Made by a program: the position numbers and the translations under genes
Shown here: in pieces, positions 6,661-55,509 of the stretch
Layout of the letters: every line of letters begins with the position of its first letter
Numbering within the stretch: position 1 is the stretch's first letter
The notes under the pieces: model-generated
Databases searched by the model: none
The model's input: the letters and a program-made list of their open reading frames with translations, nothing else
Told to the model about the DNA's origin: nothing
Assembly (NCBI RefSeq): GCF_963676685.1
Contig: NC_092345.1
Coordinates: forward strand, 28,086,001-28,150,000
DNA: 64,000 nt
Source of the DNA: Mytilus edulis
Lineage: Eukaryota
Direction: 5' to 3'

Positions 6661-8929
6661 AATAATTGAAATTGTTTTGAATTGGCGAGTACTTTTAAAT
6701 CGATTTATTGGGTTTTGTTTTGTGTCTCTTTTTCGTTGTTGCTATTTTGTGTGTCCTTCTGGTCGATTTGATGAGTAAATAAAGCCCTGTCCCACTCATT
6801 TTTCACATTTAAACTTATGTTGTTCTGTTTCAAATCGTTCTCATGTTAAGTGAGGTTTGAACCCTCAAACATATTTAACCTTGCACATTCTGTATGTGTC
6901 TGTCTCAAGTCAAAAATGCATCGGTAAATCAGTGTCTGTTGTTGGTTGATGCATGCCATATTTGTTTCTCTATTTCATTGTTTAACATTAATGGGGTCGT
7001 TGGTTTTTTCTTTTGAGTTGTTTCACATTTGTCGTGTTGGTAACCTTTATACATTACTAAATTGTTTGAACTTTTTTGTTCATTTTTGAAGCCCGTGCAC
7101 CGACCTATAGACTAAATGTAGTTGTATTAGGTCCATTTTTTTGTTGTCCCAAACAGCTTTACAACTGAAACGTTTATTGAATATCCTGATTTTAGAAACT
7201 AAAGTTACATACATCTTTGTCCTAGTTTTTTTTGTCTATGATGGATATTGTGTCATGGATAAACAAACCACGAAATACTCACGAATGTAAACGTAGCGTC
7301 TATATATGTATTATGATGAATATTGTGATATCGGCTTGCAGTCTCATTGACATATGGTCCATATCTTCTTTAAATCTTAAAATGGTGACATTTGGCTGTT
7401 TTCTGCTCTTTGGTCAGGTTTTTGTCTCTTTGACACATTCACTGTTTCCATAATGGCATTATCAATTTATTTGCAAACACCAGCTTTGAAATATAATTAA
7501 TTACGATTTGTTCATGAATGTAACTCATCAGCTTAAATATTTAGTAAAATCTGGCACTAGAAACCTGTATACTTGAAAAGTTGATAAGTTGAAAACAACA
7601 AATACAAATTGATATAAATTTTATTTTTGATTATTGGAATTTTACACAATTTTCAGCTAACTTGGCTATATCATGGAAAACTGTTTTTGTTCTTGGATAC
7701 AGTCAAGTTACCCGAAGAGAACATTCTACCTTCGGAAGGAAAACCAAACAACTAGTCAATTCAGATTAGAGATTTACGCACCTTGCGGAAGAGTCCACTG
7801 TAGATAAAACACTTGGTCACTGATGACCCCTAAATGAATTGATGACCCCTAAATGAATTCAACACAAAATAAAAAAAAACATGGATTAAAAATTACAAAT
7901 AAGAAAAAAATACAACATGTGCAAATATAGTAAGCAAAAAAACCTACCAGTATGAGAATTAAAGTTGTGGTTACAACTATTGGAACATATCCGTCGTCAT
8001 CTGCATGTAAAACAGATATTCAATAACGGTTAACCGATTCGTGATAGTGCACTTGATAAACCAGGTGCTCCGCAGGGCGCAGCTTTATACGACCGCAGAG
8101 GTCGAACCCTGAACAGTTGGGGCAAGTATGGACAAAACATTCAAGCGTGATACAGCTCTGAATTTGGATTGTGATCAAATTTTTGACATTACATGGTTTT
8201 TTTTTACACAAAACAAATGTCAAGATTTTACAAATCAATTAAAGATTTCTTCTTCAAACTTTTTAAATCTAAAATTAAATAGTTGACACAGCATAGGTTT
8301 CTGACACATAATGAATGTGGTCTAATGAACTTAAAAGTTTTTTTTTGCCTTTGAGCAATTCACTATGCTGTTGAATATTAATCCTCTCAAAAAAATGTTT
8401 GAAGAAATTTTCTTTTTATTTATGAAATCTGAAATGAGAAAAATTTAAACCCCCCCCCCTTTTTTTTCACATCCCCGTTTCCCTTTTTCCAAAACTGATA
8501 TCAATTCAAATTTCTAATGGAGTTTGCAACAATAACTACTCTTTTAAATACATCATAAAATATTAAAATGTAAAATAAAGTGCTTGTTATCACTGAATGG
8601 TAAAGATTGGTTGGTAGTAAAAGTGAATATACATTGTTTATTGTATAAAACAATAAAAAAAACTTCATCAGCAACATTTTATATTGGCAAATTTCCAATG
8701 AAGTTATTTACATAAAGTTATTGGCAAATAAAAATAGAAAATGACATCATAGTCATGTCTGGCAAATTTCCAACATATATTATCAACTATTATTCTATAC
8801 AAAGAAAGATAACTCCAATTGAAAATTAATTGCTATTGCACAATATTGTGCAATTAGATATTTCTTGCTATTGTGCAATACTGTGCAATTGAAAATTTCT
8901 TGCTTTTGCACAATACTTGATATGGAATC

Positions 8930-9470
8930 CTGATTTGGACCAACTTGAAAACTGGGCCCATAATCAAAAATCAAAGTACATATTTAGATAAAGCATATCA
9001 AATAAGCCCAAGAATTTAATTTTTGTTAAAATCAAACGTAGTTTAATTTTGGACCCTTTGGACCTTAATGTAGACCAATTTGAAAACTAGACCAAAAATT
9101 AAGAATCTACATACACAGTTAGATTTGGCATATCAAAGAACCCATTTATTCAATTTTTGATGAAATCAAACAAAGTTTAATTTTAGACCCCCATTTGGAC
9201 CAACTTTAAAACTAGGCCAATAATTAAAAATTTAAGTTCATTTTTAAATTCAGCATATCAAAGAACCCCAAGGATTCAATTTTTGTTAAAATCAAACTAA
9301 GTTTAATTTTGGACCCTTTGGACCTTAATGTAGACCAATTTGAAAACTGGACCAAAAGTTAAGAATCTACATACACAGTCATGACAGTTAGATTCAGCAT
9401 ATCAAAGAACCCCAATTATTCAATTTTGATGAAATCAAACAAAAGTTTAATTTTGGACCCTTTGGGCCCC
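8930..9470. repeat. ~130-bp alternating A/B subrepeats (~260-bp higher-order unit) inside the HINE
   Basis: GACCAA(C/T)TT(G/T)AAAACT recurs at ~8938, 9073, 9199 and 9333; copies 1/3 and 2/4 are most similar. Confidence 0.8.
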
Positions 9471-10075
9471 TTATTATGTTGGGACCAAAACTCCCAAAAT
9501 CAAACCCAACCTTTCTTTTATGGTCATAAACCTTGTGTTTAAATTTCATAGATTTCTATTTACTTATACTAACGTTATGGTGCGAAAACCAAGAAAAATG
9601 CTTATTTGGGTCCCTTTTTGGCCCCTAATTCCTAAACTGTTGGGACCTAAACTCCCAAAATCAATACCAACCTTCCTTTTGTAGTCATTAACATTGTGTT
9701 TAAATTTCATTGATTTCTATTTACTTAAACTAATGTTATTGTGCGAAAACCAAGAATAATGCTTATTTGGGCCCTTTTTTGGCCCCTAATTTCTAAACTG
9801 TTGAGACCAAAACTCCCAAAATCAATCCCAACCGTTCATTTGTGGTCATAAACCTTGTGTCAAAATTTCATAGATTTCTATTAACTTAAACTAAAGTTAT
9901 AGTGCGAAAACCAAGAAAATGCTTATTTGGGCCCTTTTTGGCCCCTAATTCCTAAAATGTTGAGACCAAAACTCCCAAAATCAATACCAACCTTCCTTTT
10001 GTGGTCATAAACCTTGTGTTAAAATTTCATAGATTTCCATTCACTTTTACTAAAGTTAGAGTGCGAAAACTAAAA
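9470..10075. repeat. ~160-bp tandem repeat (~3.7 copies) inside the HINE
   Basis: G(G/A)GACC(A/T)AAACTCCCAAAATCAA at 9481, 9642, 9803 and 9962 (periods 161, 161, 159). Confidence 0.9.
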
Positions 10076-10089
10076 GTATTCGGACGCCG

Positions 10090-10133
<44 letters not shown>

Positions 10134-10544
10134 CGACGCCAACGTGATAGCAATATACGACGAAAATTTTTTCAAAATTTGCGGTCGTATAAAAATGTAT
10201 GGTAAAAAATATAAACGAGCAAATAACAAAGAAAAAGTATAACAGCTTTGATAAAGGCTCAACAAAACGGCTACTACCAACTAAGAACATAAGATCTGTA
10301 CAATGATTTACAGAATGAGATTTAGGGATCACAACGGAATTAAGCCCTGACTAACATACTCCTTTCCGCCAAGTGTTTGATGGGCCTCAGCCATCACAGT
10401 TTCTCCAAATACCAACATTATCTTCATTGTACTATTCATATCTATACTTATATTTTCAAGCTTGATTTAACGACATAAATTCGACAAATAGTAACCTCTA
10501 TCAATACCTCGTGTATTTGGGTCTCGAAGTTGAAAAGTTTGTAA

Positions 10545-39160: not shown

Positions 39161-39172
39161 CTATATTTTGTA

Positions 39173-39665
39173 TAAAATTGAGAATGGAAATGGGGAATGT
39201 GTCAAAGAGACAACAACCCGACCAAATAAAAAACAACAGCAGAGGGTCACCAACAGGTCTTCAATGTAGCGAGAAATTCCTTCAGCTGGACCCTCAACAA
39301 ATATATACTAGTCCAGTGATAATGAACGCCATACTAATTTCCAAATTGTACACAAGAAACTAAAATTAAAATAATACAAGACTATCAAAGGCCAGAGGCT
39401 CCTGACTTGGGACAGGCGCAAAAATGCGGCGGGGTTAAACATGTTTGTGAGATCTCAACCCCCCCCCCCCCTATACCTCTAACCAATGTAGAAAAGTAAA
39501 CGCATAACAATACGCACATTAAAATTCAGTTCAAGAGAAGTCCGAGTCTGATGTCAGAAGATGTAACCAAAGAAAATAAACAAAATGACAATAATACATA
39601 AATAACAACAGACTACTGGCAGTTAACTGACATGCCAGCTCCAGACTTCAATTAAACTGACTGAC
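39173..39665 (+). mobile_element. Well-preserved copy of interspersed repeat family A
   Basis: TAAAATTGAGAATGGAAATGGGGAATGTGTCAAAGAGACAACAACCCGACC also at 32867 (+), and reverse-complemented at ~7400, 16300-16390 and 50970-51025. Confidence 0.85.
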
Positions 39666-39912
39666 TGTATGCATTTTCTTTCTTTAAAGATAAGCTGTAG
39701 GAACGGCAATACTACACCATATGCGCATAAATGTGTTTCGGATGACAAAATATTTAAAAATGCAAAACCTTATACAAACATTGAAGAACCTGATAAAAGC
39801 AAAAAGTAACCGAAGTATAATAGCAAACTCGCACAACTTATCAGAGCAATACACTAATGAGATACATTTTTCAGTTTTAAATTATTACAAATATTTTACA
39901 ACAGCAAATATC

Positions 39913-42900
39913 AACTAGATTTGCCATTGCAAGCAATAGCGGATGGCACCCTTCCCCCATTGCCAGGCGAGTGGCAGCCATTTTGAAAAATTCAAAATCA
40001 AAGAGGGCTTTTACACATGTTTATTAACATTGTTGTAAAATTTCAACTCGTTTGGAGCATTTTGAAATTTTTGAAAATTTTGCTGTTTCCATGGTAATAG
40101 TTACTATTTCCAAAATTCAAAAGACAGGTGCCACATTGGTACATGCCATGTTACATATCTATAAAGTTTCATTGGGATTGATGCTATATTCTTCAAGAAA
40201 ATGTAGCTTTTATGTGTTTTCCCATACGGTCAATGCTAAACTTTCGCCCTGTTTCCATGACAATGGCGGCCATTTTGGAACCTCTTGATATTGCATGCAC
40301 ATCTGGGCATACCATGTAACACTTCCACAAAGTTTCATCCACTTGGGTCTTATAATGAAAGATTTGGAATTTTGCCAATTTTTCACATTTTTGCAGTTTC
40401 CATGGAAACGGCAGCCATCTTGAACCATTCCATGGTGCCTGCAACTCTTCACCTAAGGGTCCTCTATATAATAGAGTTCCATCAACTTTGGTTCATTGGA
40501 TTTCCAGAAATCTCCTGGACAAAATGTGTGGAAGAAAAATAATAAAAACTAGATTTGCAATTGCAAGCAATAGCGGATGGCACCCTTCCCATATTGCCAG
40601 GTGAGCGGTAGCCATGGTAACGGCGGCCATTTTGGAAATTCCAAACTCAAAAGTCAAGTCTACATTAGCTGAGCAACATTTGTTATAAGTTTCAATAAAT
40701 TTGAAGCATTTTGAAGTTTTTTGTATTTTTGCTGTTTCTATGGTAACGGCGGCCATTTTGAATATTCCAAAGTCAAACCCCCGCTGCAATTTTTCCCCTC
40801 CATAATCATATACCATATTTAATGTCTCTAGAATAAATTAAACATTGATGTTCTAGAATGTTCTGTGAAAATTCAAAGTTTTGACCTTTTTGCATTGTTT
40901 CCATGGTAACAACAGCGATTTTGGAAATTCCAACGCCAAATTTCACATCTTCCAATGTTGCTCATCGTTACTGTGAAGTTTCATTAAGTTTGGAACATTT
41001 TGAGATTTTTGAATTTTTTGGAGTAGTTTCCATGGCAACATAGTAGTTCCAATGAGGGCCAAAATCATCCAAGACCTGTATATAGTGGGCACCTACATTG
41101 TATTATAATATAATGATTCTGAGTTAAAGCATATACAAACAGTTCACCAAAACAAAAAACTGGATTTTTTCACATTTGTTCCGTTTCCATGGTAACGGCA
41201 GCCATCTTAAAAGTGCCACCCCCAAAAAGCAAATCTTCATTTGGTGGTTAACATTATGGTATAGTTCCATCTTCTTGGGTCCATTCATATAAGAGTTCCA
41301 GACCGGACAAAAATGTGTGGAAGAAAAATAATAAAAAAAACAAAAAGAAACGTAGAATAACAATATGTCACCCAAACTCCGTTTAGGGTGCCATAATAAT
41401 AATAATAATAACTAGATTTGCCATTGCAAGCAATAGCGGATGGCACCCTTCCCACATTGCCAGGCGAGCGGCAGCAATCTAGAAAATTCCAAAGTCAAAG
41501 TGTGCATCTACACATTCAAATTATCATATTTGTAAAGTTTCATTAAGTTTGGAGCATTTTGAAGTTTTTGACATTTTTGCTGTTTCCATGGTTACAGCAG
41601 CCATTTTGAAAATTCCAACTTCAAATGTCAACTTTGCTTATGCCAGTGACCATTCCTGTAAAGTTTCATCCAGTTTAAAGCATTTTTAATTTTTTTGAAA
41701 TTTTTGACCTTTTTTGCATTGTTTCCATGGTAACAACAGATATTTTAGAAATTCCAACGCCAAATTCCACATCTTCCAATGTTGCTCATCGTTACTGTGA
41801 AGTTTCATGAAGTTTGGAGCATTTTGATATTTTTGAAATTTTTGGTACAGTTTCCATGGCAACATAGTAGTTCCAATGAGTGCCAAAATCATCCAACACC
41901 TGTATATGGCCGGCACCTACATTGTATCAAAATATAATGGTTCTGAGTTTAAGCATATCAAAACAGTTCACCAAAACAAAAAACAGGATTTTTTCACATT
42001 TGTTTCGTTTCCATGGCAACGTCAGCCATCTTGATGGTGCCATACCTCACTGCACTATAGAATGTGGTGGTCTACATTATGGTATAGTTCCATCAATATT
42101 GTTCAAGCCAATTCCGAGAAATAGAATGGACAAAAAAGTGTGGAAGAATAAAAATAATAACTAGAATTGCCATTGCAAGCAATAGCGGATGTCACCCTTC
42201 CCCTATTGCCACTAACCGGCAGCCATTTCAAAATGGTTTAACAGTGAATGCACATATATTTATGGCAATACATCTTTCTGTAAATTTTCAGTACATTCAG
42301 AGCATTTTAAAAAAATTCACATTTCTGCTGTTTCCATGGCAACGGCAGCCATTTTGAAAATTTCAAAGTGAAAAGTCTCATCTGTACTTGGCAGTTAACA
42401 ATAATATCAAGTTTCATTAAGTTCAAAGCATTTTGAGAAATTTTGACTTTTTTGCAGTTTCCAAGGCAACGGTGGCCATTTTGGAAATTCCAAAGTCAAA
42501 AGTCTCATCCAGACTTGCCAGTCAACTATCATATTAAGTTTCATCAATTTTGGAGCATTTTGAAATTTTTTAGATATTTGATCCTGTATCCATGGTAACA
42601 GAGTAGTTCCAATGATTGTCAAAATCATTCAAAACCTGTATATAGTGGACAACTATATTGCATAAAAATTTGATGATTTTAAGTTCAAGCATACCAAAGT
42701 TATTCACCAAACCCTGAAGTTTTTAGAGCATTTTGACACTTATGCACTGTTTCCATGGTAACGGCAGACATTTTGGAAATTCCAACGCCAAATTCCACTT
42801 CTACCAAAGTTGCTCATCGTTATGCTAAAGTTTCAAAAAATTTGGATCATTTTGATATTTTTGAAATTTTTGGTGTCGTTTCCATGGCAACATAGTAGTT

Positions 42901-44263
42901 CCAATGATTGCCAAAATCATCCAAAACCAGTATATGCCCGGCACCTACATTGTATCAAAATATAATGATTCTAAGTTAAAGCATTTCCAAATAATTCATC
43001 AAAACCAAAAACTGGAATTTTCCATTATTTTTCGGTTTCCATGGTGATGGCAGCCATTTTTTAGTTCCAAAGTTGCACTGCAACTGGACAGTCAGGGTTC
43101 CTTGTTATAGTGCACCATCATTCAGATTGGTCCCTTTGGCTCTGAGAAAACTGCCGGACAAAACCAGGTGGAAGAAAAATAATAATAATAATAGTGAAAA
43201 AGAAACAGAGGAATAGCAATATGTCACCCGACATTGTCGATCGGGTGACATAACTAGATTTGTAATTGCTAGCAATAACGGATGGCACCCTTCCGCCATT
43301 GCCAGGATAACAGCAGCCATTTTGAAAATTCCAAAATCAAAGACCGGATTTACACATGCCTATTAACATTTTTGTAAAGTTTTAGAAAGATTGGAGCATT
43401 TTGAAAATTTTGATATTTTTCGCATTTTACCAGTTTCCATGGTAACGGCGGCCATCTTGGTAGTGCCAACCCTTATTTGCAAATCTGCACATGGTGGTTA
43501 ACATTATTGTAAAGTTCCATCAGCATTGGTCCATACAGTTCCGAGAAATCGCCTGGACAAAAAAAGTGGAAGAAAAATAATATTAAAAATAAGAAAAAAA
43601 GAAACGTAGAATAACAATATGTCACCCAAACTCCGTTTAGGGTGCCATAACTAGAATTGCCATTGCAAGCAATAGCGGATGCCACCCTGGTCCACCCATT
43701 GCCACTTAACAGCAGCCATGGTAACGGAAGCCATTTTGGAAATTCCAAAGTTGAAAGCCGCATCTAGATTAACAAGTTAACATTTCTGTAACGTTTCATA
43801 CAGATTTGAAGAATTTTCAAAATTTTGCCTTTTTTGCACAGTTTCCATGGCAACATTTGAAAATTCCAAAGTCATACTGCTGCTTTATATTGTGCTCGCC
43901 ATAATATAATACCATTATATAACATTAAATGTTCGTAGATTTACTTTAACACCAATGTTCTAGAACGTTCTATTATATTTTTACATTCTTTCTGTTTCCA
44001 TGACAACGGCAGCCATGTTGGATATGCCAACCCTCGACTGCACTTCTGCACATGGTCTTTAACATTTTGGTAAAGTTCCATAACAATTGGTCCATCCTAT
44101 TCCCAGAAATAGTCTGGACAAAAAAGTGTGGAATAATAATAAAAAAAAGAATCGTACAATAACAATATGTCACCCGACCTCAGTCAGGGTGACATAATAA
44201 TAAGAAAAAAAAAGAAACGTAGAATAACAATACGTCACCCCAACTCCGTTGAGGGTGCCATAA
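39913..44263 (-). mobile_element. Stack of six non-autonomous Helentron-like (HINE) elements, head-to-tail/nested
   Basis: Near-identical end motif AACTAGA(T/A)TTGCCATTGCAAGCAATAGCGGATG(G/T/C)CACCC at 39913, 40547, 41410, 42159, 43252 and 43649. Opposite-end hairpins ATGTCACCC...GGGTG(C/A)CATAA at ~41365, 43221, 43619, 44167 and 44232. Interiors are built of ~127-160-bp modules. Confidence 0.85.
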
Positions 44264-46612: not shown

Positions 46613-46892
46613 TGATACCAAACTCCAAAGCAAAGTCCTGATACCAAACTCCAAGGCAAAGTCCTGATACCAAACTCCAAGGCAAAGTCCTAATACCAAA
46701 CTCCAAGGCAAAGTCCTGATACCAAACTCCAAGGCAAAGTCCTGATACCAACTACAAGGCAAAGTCCTGATACCAAACTCCAAGGCAAAGTCCTGATACC
46801 AAACTCCAAGGCAAAGTCCTGATACCAAACTCCAAGCCAAAGTCCTGATACCAAACTCCAAGGCAAAGTCCTGATACCAACTACAAGGCAAA
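46613..46892. repeat. Homogeneous 26-bp minisatellite (GATACCAAACTCCAAGGCAAAGTCCT) x~11
   Basis: Direct reading; near-identical copies with a recurring 25-bp CAACTACAAGG variant. Confidence 0.95.
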
Positions 46893-53190: not shown

Positions 53191-54554
53191 TTAATTTTGT
53201 TCCTGAACAAACAATTAATAAGTAAGATATTAAACTATGTAAGTAATCTCGACAACAGAGAAATACAGACAGTACATTTTTTTTAAACTCGTCTGGGCAA
53301 AACACAAACCAGACTAAATCAATATATATTATGAATATTGAAAAATAATACTCACAACCGGTTTGGCACATCATACGCTGTGTTCGAAAATCGGCTTAAA
53401 TTTGTATATGCAATATATTGACACAGTTTATTTTATAATATCTTATTCGAGTTCCTATGATGCACACTGTTTATTTTTTTCGCAATACTTTTGTTCAAAG
53501 AGATATAAAATCATTACGACTACTTCCGTAATGGCATTTCTTAGAACCAGATTTTTTTAGCATGCCCGCTCTGGGTAATTTAATTGAGTAATGCTCTTAG
53601 GTTAAAACTTCATAATAAGTATTCAGCTATGGACAAGTCAGTTTGTTTTCAATATATGTATGACTTTTCATTTTTTTTCAATGTTCCCATGGAAGCGCTA
53701 TTCTATCCATTTATAAATTATTTCCAATTCGACATTCATTTGGCCGTTGAAAAATGCGTGATATACAATCGTTTAATATTTTCTTAGTTCATTTTTTATG
53801 ATAAATGTTTATATTTCATAATTCTGCATTTAACTAATCATTTTTTGCTATATTTGAATATATTAACGTCACGGAATGCGTTTTGGAAAAGATTTTTGCA
53901 AATCTAATTTCTGTGTTAGTTTTTGTTGTACATATATATTTTTGTTTTTTACAGGATTAGAATTCGTTTTGAAACTAATGGTTTATGTCTCTACAAAAAA
54001 AAAAAAAAAACACATCAACGTGGAATACACGTTTCGTGTAAGTTGGCGTTCCATAAAAAACTAGTTTTGCTCGTGTATACGGAATAAAGCTCCATTATTA
54101 CCGTATTAAAATACGAAAAGGGCGACAACCCTATTTACGTGATTAATTCTCATCAATATTCTAAACAAAATAAAAATCATACAAAAATTCCGCCTCTGTG
54201 AAAACTACCAAATTGAAGTCTTCACATCCAAAACCGACGCTTATCATTATGTATGAATACAAATGGATACGATCATGAACCGCTGTTGAAAATTGCAGGA
54301 AAAAAAGAAGAAATTTCTTGAATAATCAGAACGGCTCTCAAGTTTTTCAGTTTACGCAATATTGTCAAAATAATTCAACACAAATAAATTAATTAAGCAA
54401 TAACTTAAATATAACCTTGTATTATTCTGTTTATTGATTATTTCTGTTAACCATATCTCGTTTGATTCAAAATGACAATTATACAAATATATTGCGATAA
54501 ATAGTTCAAAATTAGTTTTTAAATTGATAGCGTTAAGTTTTTGGAACACAATTT

Positions 54555-55420
54555 TATGAAATATCTCATGATTACAATGATTCATTATAGTTAGTCCGTC
54601 AATGATATATCTCATGACGACAATGATTCATTATGGTTAGTCCATCAATGAGATATCTCATGATGACAATGATTCATTATAGTTAGTCCGTCAATGAGAT
54701 ATCTCATGACGATAATGATTCATTATGGTTAGTCCGTCAATAAGATATCTCATGACAAACAATGATTCATTATGGTTAGTCCATCAATGAGATATTTCAT
54801 GATGACAATGATTCATTATAGTTAGTCCATCAATGAGATATATCATGATGACAATTATACATTATGGTTAGTCCATCAATGAGATATCTCATGACGACAA
54901 TGATTCATTAAGGTTTGTCCGTCAATGAAATATTTCATGATGACAATGATTCATCATGGTTCGTCCGTCAATGAAATATCTCATGACGATAATGGTTCAT
55001 TATGGTTCGTCCGTCAGTGAGATATCTCATCACGACAATGATTCATTATAGTTAGTCCGTCAATGAGATATCTCATCACGACAATGATTCATTATGGTTA
55101 GTCCGTCTATGAAATATCTCATCACGACAATGATTCATTATGGTTCGTCCGTCAGTGAGATATCTCATTACGATAGTGATTCATTATGGTTCGTCCGTCA
55201 GCGAGATATCTAATCACGACAATGATTCATTATGGTTAGTCCGTCAATGAGATATATCATGACGACAATGATTCATTATGGTTAGTCCGTCAATGAGATA
55301 TCTCATGACGACAATGATTCATTATGGTTCGTCCGTCAATGATATATCTCATGACGACAATGATTCATTATGGTTCGTCCGTCAATGAGATATCTCATGA
55401 TGACAATGATTCATTGTGGA
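54555..55420. repeat. 46-bp minisatellite x~18-19 (TGAGATATCTCATGACGACAATGATTCATTATGGTTAGTCCGTCAA)
   Basis: Period 46 (54601 to 54647). Contains the 14-bp palindrome ATGAGATATCTCAT and AATGATTCATT. No unique spacers. Confidence 0.95.
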
Positions 55421-55509
55421 TCGTCCCTGAATAAGACAGTACTTGATGTATTATAAGTATCCATATGCATTTTAAATAAAACGACAACAGAAAGCGAATT
55501 GCAAAATAT

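Follow-up and report, generated by a model that had tools for sequence, protein, structure and literature searches.

The DNA analysed here is a 64,000-nucleotide window of Mytilus edulis contig NC_092345.1 (positions 28,086,001 to 28,150,000; about 32% GC, in a genome of 1.37 Gb with 14 large contigs), which contains an array of X-box-like palindromes. The region carrying them, 39913 to 44261 in window coordinates, is almost certainly a stack of non-autonomous Helentrons (HINEs) nested one in another, and the palindrome is very probably under selection at the level of the element, within its own lineage. A complete unit, taken on the minus strand, comprises TT, a subterminal inverted repeat (subTIR) of about 10 bp that pairs with a nearby inverted repeat, then a (TTA)n-like tract followed by diverged monomers of 126-166 bp, a second subTIR, a weak stem-loop, CTAG and TT. 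The units of the stack measure 0.4-1.1 kb, the first subTIR lying 2 nt from the 5' end and the second starting 38 nt from the 3' end. A hairpin fold was predicted for all five 5' heads of the window (-8.9 to -12.3 kcal/mol) and a stem-loop for all six 3' ends, the latter being weak (-4.1 to -5.4 kcal/mol) and having alternative pairings. With a body written as an opening and a head as a closing bracket, the plus strand of the stack reads (()(()()()), so it is short of one head, and either element 1 or element 3 is without its own (Table 1). Most of 345 3' junctions finish in AA on the opposite strand (255 as AATAA or CATAA) and solo copies lie in A/T-rich flanks; the junctions thus indicate insertion at TT in T-rich DNA, as is expected of a HINE. 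No target-site duplication was seen in the flanks of the window stack or of solo copies, and the length of the apparent array-free allele described below agrees with this. A previous sequence-only reading of this stretch had taken the carrier for a rolling-circle transposon, which the anatomy and the Rep-helicase partners described below bear out; the real unit, the 0.4-1.1 kb element, and the extent of the array had been overlooked by it.

Table 1. Features of the window in window coordinates. Bodies start at the first coordinate of the element rows; the heads are five hairpins of 48-50 bp.
Feature	Coordinates	Strand	Remarks
Nested stack	39913..44261	-	Six non-autonomous Helentrons (six bodies, five 5' heads), single orientation
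Element 1	39913..40546	-	3' end (subTIR, stem-loop, CTAG), three monomers, T-rich tract; head lost or the one at 44214; type has 5 copies across 5 regions
Element 2	40547..41394	-	Complete; sits in the tract of element 1; head 41347-41394; type has 22 copies across 14 regions
Element 3	41410..42158	-	Body; tract hosts elements 4-6; likeliest head 44214-44261, whose class fits the type; at least 31 further copies at 97-98% identity
Element 4	42159..43251	-	Complete; carries six X-box-like sites; head 43202-43251
Element 5	43252..43648	-	Complete, short; head 43601-43648
Element 6	43649..44195	-	Complete; head 44149-44195; type has 7 copies across 5 regions
Outermost 5' head	44214..44261	-	subTIR and inverted repeat hairpin; predicted DNA fold -8.9 kcal/mol
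X-box-like sites	40085..44007	.	22 sites, 14 followed by a YY1-like word: 40085, 40251, 40396, 40608, 40734, 40897, 41026, 41183, 41582, 41721, 41850, 42007, 42330, 42457, 42586, 42749, 42878, 43035, 43433, 43712, 43841, 43994
Abundant repeat	~39170-39665		Just left of the stack and separate from it; summed contig depth more than 10x that of array units
Young tandem array	46613-46892		26 bp unit, 10.8 copies, 95%
Young tandem array	54556-55426		46 bp unit, 18.9 copies, 90%

The occurrence of the palindrome in the window was compared with shuffled sequence. At one mismatch or fewer the word GTTNCCATGGNAAC was matched 19 times between 40085 and 44007 (12 exactly) and once more at 53683, against a mean of 0.10 and a maximum of 1 in 100 dinucleotide shuffles of the window. 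With two mismatches allowed, 22 X-box-like sites were counted. The roughly 20 palindromes claimed in the sequence-only reading are thus real, and its six coordinates for GTTTCCATGGCAAC and its perfect palindrome at 40396 were all correct. Sixteen of the 21 intervals between sites measure 126-166 bp, and the other five (212-399 bp) are exactly those spanning element junctions. The near-nucleosomal spacing proposed earlier varies and lies close to the 140-180 bp of ordinary oyster HINE monomers (PMC7492417; here and below, papers are cited for the portions of text covered), and is thus no evidence of nucleosome phasing. One base after the X-box a YY1-like word follows, exactly (GCNGCCATNTT) at 10 of the 22 sites and within one mismatch at 14, which upholds the proposed fusion of the two motifs. 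The array sites match the GCCAT core of YY1 and the Pho consensus CNGCCATNDNND (PMC4901126), both being present after 11 of the 22 X-boxes. The high-affinity long form of the YY1 site begins GCCGCCAT in the same source; GCCGCCATNTT, which is of this form and had been named as the YY1 consensus, has no exact occurrence in the array and was dropped as its YY1 word.

Constraint was measured across the 17 largest types, on 214 distinct non-autonomous copies, and the expected counts were matched for column class (AT, GC or CpG). The X-box columns contained 52 singleton variants against 159 expected and 31 shared variants against 120. The corresponding values were 19 against 96 and 8 against 75 for the 3' terminus, and 85 against 109 and 32 against 84 for the YY1-like columns. 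The control word AAAGTTTCAT showed no depletion, with 83 singletons against 65 expected and 45 shared variants against 48. The comparison of motif with flank went in favour of the motif, the X-box varying three to four times less than the surrounding body and nearing the 3' terminus; the earlier view of the box as the best-conserved part of the module stands for the X-box and only in part for the YY1-like word. Variant alleles numbered 1-9 at 13 positions of the box, 19 at position 11 and 14-30 in the flanks. Private divergence from the low to the high body class rose from 2.4 to 20.5 per kb in the body, from 2.4 to 5.5 in the X-box and from 1.8 to 3.1 in the terminus, the split being made on the body rate, which biases the lowest class. 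The trend of X-box and terminus would fit selection during copying and not after insertion.

The base preference within the word was read from 111 distinct monomer contexts, chosen at three or fewer mismatches. The RFX half-site RGYAAC, as known from the palindromic X-box consensus (PMC3414849), is kept in 71 of them. Position 4 is mostly T, and position 11 varies freely (C 46, T 50, A 13, G 2); the word therefore keeps the RFX half-site and not a perfect hairpin. Of the composite RFX-YY1 module suggested by the sequence-only reading, the RFX part agrees with this pattern of free and fixed positions and the YY1 part fits more weakly. Constraint in copies that encode nothing suggests a function required in cis and supplies host proteins as candidates for it.

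The autonomous partners of the family were then identified. The Rep profile PF14214 gave 150 genome matches, many in open reading frames (ORFs) of 2,000-3,200 aa, which point to several recently active Helitron-like clades. Several of the matches belong to partners, elements of 14-21 kb that lie within or next to arrays in the orientation of the element; they have the head and the 3' end of the family and contain an ORF of about 2,000 aa. Rep and PIF1 domains were present in two partner ORFs, and an Exo_endo_phos domain C-terminal to the helicase was borderline in one of the two (E 3e-05, 24.3 bits against a cut-off of 24.5). X-box repeats occupy the 5' end of the partners, about 3-8 kb upstream of the ORF, and are almost lacking from the 3' part. 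X-boxes with family ends were located upstream of eight of ten further Rep loci of the same clade against one of ten other Rep loci, counts which are lower bounds and in which a loose opener pattern gave false brackets in the other clades; the Rep tree behind this sorting was a quick version, used solely to assign loci to clades. The 3'-end pattern of the family had 3,236 exact genome matches, indicating at least 3,236 copies, and none for the reversed control.

The 26-bp composite was also located by motif search in metagenome contigs, at 23 distinct loci, nine of which have just 29-43 bp in common with the family bodies. Two of the loci, L135 (946 bp) and L151 (924 bp), have terminal inverted repeats (TIRs) of 20 and 13 bp, GG..CC termini and TTAA at both ends, and contain the composite 123-125 bp from the left end; no transposase was seen in them. 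They agree with the description of Kolobok elements by TTAA at both ends, RR..YY termini and TIRs (PMC9587614). Five of the nine unrelated loci have TTAAGG at 127-152 bp upstream of the motif, in a window picked after inspection of the data. Together with L143, L150 and L155, L135 and L151 form a set of Kolobok-like TTAA elements with the composite 123-152 bp from the TTAAGG end. No complete TIR pair was detected in L136, L140, L143, L152 or L155, and that of L150 has only 6 bp. L153, on a 232-kb contig of 53% GC, was set aside as probably a chance match. A word common to a rolling-circle family and to TIR elements would more simply be a host-factor site than the site of one transposase; six loci with an RFX DNA-binding domain were found in the host.

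The distribution of the family in the genome was surveyed for the origin of the stack. Arrays elsewhere also give nested brackets of uniform orientation; those that are complete are near balance, and solo copies give one pair. One complete array has 43 bodies to 40 heads over 39 kb and finishes in a run of 13 heads. Of 373 3' ends in 37 regions picked around copies already known, 351 adjoin a head or fall within the tract that follows a body; among the remaining 22, about four appeared by eye to lie within bodies or to be false calls. Body cores are hardly hit by insertion, for all their 27,338 AA and 40,078 TT steps. Where a head directly follows a body, the body type predicted its class in 140 of 141 instances. 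For nested pairs, the head given by bracket matching agreed with the body type 65 times out of 80, compared with a mean of 36.1 and a maximum of 53 in 20,000 permutations. Of the first 100 copies on contig C1, a count that is unbiased, unlike regions chosen around copies, 90 have a neighbour within 3 kb (21 clusters), compared with 12 of 100 (93 clusters) in a control HINE family. A solo copy of this control HINE stands at 8816-10185 of the window; it has repeats of 135 and 161 bp and a GAC microsatellite and lacks an X-box. The head pattern of the control HINE marks 4,060 mostly dispersed copies.

The neighbours of the copies were also examined. All 20 fetched element 3 loci, the one in the window included, stand among sister units in an order that differs every time, and distinct neighbour pairs numbered 22/23, 26/26, 20/22, 22/22 and 17/18 in five types. 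Since neighbours differ for nearly every copy, the arrays grew piece by piece, and movement as composite blocks was rejected as the main route; only seven between-region blocks of at least 1.5 kb were found. Same-type neighbours were slightly over-represented (16 of 331 against 9.3, p 0.025). Integration of circles by recombination was rejected as well, as it would yield tandem order, yet 101 nested pairs were seen. The abundance of (TAA)n tracts was rejected as sole cause of stacking, the occurrence of AATAATAA in 80 kb of non-array DNA extrapolating to about 309,000 sites in the genome; a longer tract was seen once in the 80 kb, which makes its extrapolation to about 17,000 sites poor. The stack is a by-product of repeated self-insertion.

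Some further arrangements were noted among the arrays. At L089-L090 (G000:C1:48.63 Mb) a block of element and flank is repeated three times, with 5 bodies and 14 heads, by local duplication or assembly artefact. Two mirror-oriented nested arrays meet at about 8.2211 Mb in L084-L085 (G000:C1:8.217-8.229 Mb), the sole orientation switch seen. In L027 (5984-9901) a body is interrupted by another kind of element, whose open frame spans at least 774 aa. The nests at L036-L037, L101-L104 and L109 are shared by sister HINE families that differ in their heads and 3' ends, and those of their bodies that were inspected also carry X-boxes. L157 and L158-L159 (G000:C1:9.35 and 23.91 Mb) are large inverted elements of 5-10 kb with tandem repeats of about 170 bp, each arm having about 625 bp at 85% identity to an X-box body.

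On balance, the X-box with its YY1-like word is probably an internal signal of the element, read by host RFX, a regulator of cilia and sperm, with YY1 as the weaker partner. Host RFX, with YY1, would bind the sites and open or transcribe the element, and a Rep-helicase (RepHel) supplied in trans would then nick and copy it. In autonomous copies, where the repeats precede the ORF, they would in addition promote expression of RepHel in cells rich in RFX, for example those of the male germ line. More speculatively, the bound state may turn resident copies into preferred landing sites. That the boxes also cause the self-targeting is doubtful; the insertion zone is accounted for just as well if RepHel docks on a resident head hairpin next to a T-rich tract. 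The wider proposition is equally tentative: that the RFX-YY1 composite is a portable transposition enhancer, which would license germ-line rolling-circle copying of gene-less Helentrons, mark landing pads and build nests, and on which unrelated DNA-transposon superfamilies of marine animals would have converged as a cassette.

Several observations weigh against a signal read by RFX and YY1. Position 4 is nearly fixed (T in 101 of the 111 contexts), and RFX would be expected to tolerate other bases there. The YY1-like part is modestly constrained in its singletons, eight of the 22 window sites have no YY1-like word, and the high-affinity YY1 form is absent from the array. A second, T-rich control word had 116 singletons against 116 expected and was slightly depleted in shared variants (68 against 90, p 0.01, a significance overstated, as in all constraint tests, by treating columns as independent). 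HINEs in general can do without the motif, since the control HINE family, whose copy in the window has no X-box, rose to 4,060 copies. The metagenome loci, having been found via the motif, show its spread and not its function. Among the sampled Rep loci the motif follows one clade, as a RepHel-binding site would do too.

This last point leads to the explanation already named as an alternative in the sequence-only reading, that the palindrome is the own binding site (iteron) of RepHel and its likeness to RFX convergent. A constraint near that of the terminus, the tracking of one Rep clade and the RepHel N-terminus of about 560 aa with little domain annotation are all consistent with it. The free positions, on the other hand, match RFX and YY1 sites, the same 26-bp composite is present in TTAA elements with TIRs that would use a different transposase, and no RFX-like domain was detected by Pfam or PDB sequence search in RepHel, the N-terminus included. 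The explanation is weakened by the unrelated TIR elements and was kept as a rather unlikely rival.

A low variation without function, arising from a mutation cold spot, gene conversion among monomers or an alignment artefact, was also considered. The motif columns were defined from the majority sequence, and homologous monomers could convert one another. A control word picked in the same way was not depleted, however, and the edges of constraint are sharp with the free position 11 inside. In windows anchored on another word the X-box was still recovered in 72 of 94 and its columns reached 0.80 against 0.57, with 0.75 for a T-rich window of the same alignment, these counts being lower bounds. 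Such an origin of the low variation is accordingly quite improbable.

Service of the stack to the host, as a transposon-built enhancer or a sink for RFX and YY1, had been put forward on the basis of the sequence. The density of 22 sites in 4 kb speaks for it, as do the 15,022 exact X-box strand matches genome-wide (palindromes counted twice) and the regulation of nearby genes by Helitron-borne clusters of heat-shock elements (HSE) in Caenorhabditis (PMC6927752). In each of runs X1, X2 and X7, however, one contig joins window 39750-39824 to 44432 onward at 257 nt, the distance being 4,608 in the window and about 259 in an array-free allele. These flank contigs have the same length and depth for left- and right-flank matches; the letters between the joined flanks did not align at the thresholds used, and a diverged paralogue is possible. 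An array-free allele is thus apparent in all three runs that match both flanks, and the array is apparently not fixed in the population; run X11 carries the left flank of the window exactly. No Pfam hit exceeded the cut-off in 50 of the 172 window ORFs (one weak TIR_3 match lay below it), a search which short exons would escape. Part of the unit is present as contigs in six RNA runs. In the least diverged third of copies, private changes are about as frequent in the X-box as in the body (2.4 against 2.35 per kb, a class biased by the split on body rate). Given the apparent array-free allele, the lack of a recognised gene among the 50 ORFs scanned and the origin of the stack by self-insertion, a host enhancer at the window locus is unlikely, and the enhancer or sink was abandoned as a very improbable role of the stack; single copies elsewhere could be co-opted. 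Action of the palindrome as a single-strand hairpin, or of the monomers in positioning nucleosomes, is most improbable of all: Helitrons do move as single strands (PMC5148889) and the monomers measure 126-166 bp, but positions 4 and 11 are complementary, as perfect hairpin pairing needs, in only 14 of the 111 distinct sites and the spacing is not constant.

The family was compared with known systems. HINEs in bivalves and self-insertion of Helitrons are already published (PMC7492417, PMC5148889). The HINE/DINE-1 elements (PMC4067079) and the oyster Cg_HINE (PMC7492417) have the same 5' subTIR with inverted repeat, microsatellite, central repeats, 3' subTIR, stem-loop, TT junctions and a Rep-helicase partner with common ends. 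Their subTIRs are of 11-15 bp, whereas those described here are of about 10 bp, and the monomers of a single element have here diverged among themselves. Nesting involves most of the copies, unlike those of Cg_HINE, which is described as densely interspersed and for which the covered text reports no RFX or YY1 motif. In FoHeli of Fusarium oxysporum (PMC5148889) self-insertion likewise gives nested copies and several 5' termini per 3' terminus, in one nested case and some multi-head copies; in the mussel self-insertion predominates, in stacks of about 40 elements across 39 kb whose brackets match. The repeats of Caenorhabditis Helitrons are known to contain clustered sites of a host factor, and a selfish origin was speculated by the authors (PMC6927752). 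For those Helitrons, binding of HSF-1 and an influence on host genes were demonstrated; here the factor would be RFX with YY1, and the constraint lies in gene-less copies. The 5' end of the autonomous Xenopus Heli1Xen1 is reported to have chromatin immunoprecipitation (ChIP) signal of myb, foxn4, rfx2, foxj1, ep300 and beta-catenin (PMC12001565); this is one locus of another Helitron family, and motif analysis is not part of the text covered. By analogy only, the p5 control region of adeno-associated virus 2 (AAV2) combines a Rep-binding site with a host YY1 site (PMC4135950). AAV2 is a virus and not a transposon, and no RFX site is involved. Its Rep is of the HUH type. In the open-access literature no report of RFX or YY1 motifs in Helentron repeats was found, and article supplements could already hold this family; the covered parts of a bivalve structural-variant preprint and an oyster satellitome paper contain nothing on nesting or the motif.

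The central repeats of Helentrons are usually seen as passive, satellite-like cargo, and here a 14-bp word in them is nearly as constrained as the terminal signal. What the present results contribute is a measure of the constraint, the connection of the family with its autonomous partner, a comparison with a sister family that is dispersed, and the recurrence of the composite in Kolobok-like elements. Rather than serving as a switch of host genes, the element is likely to exploit a host regulator for its own spread. RFX-motif enrichment in ATAC (assay for transposase-accessible chromatin) or ChIP data from such animals may stem from transposons, with about 15,000 exact strand matches in this genome. 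Two questions are opened to testing, namely which host factors license Helitron transposition and how self-targeting arises, given 90% of copies stacked in this family and 12% in a sister HINE of the same genome.

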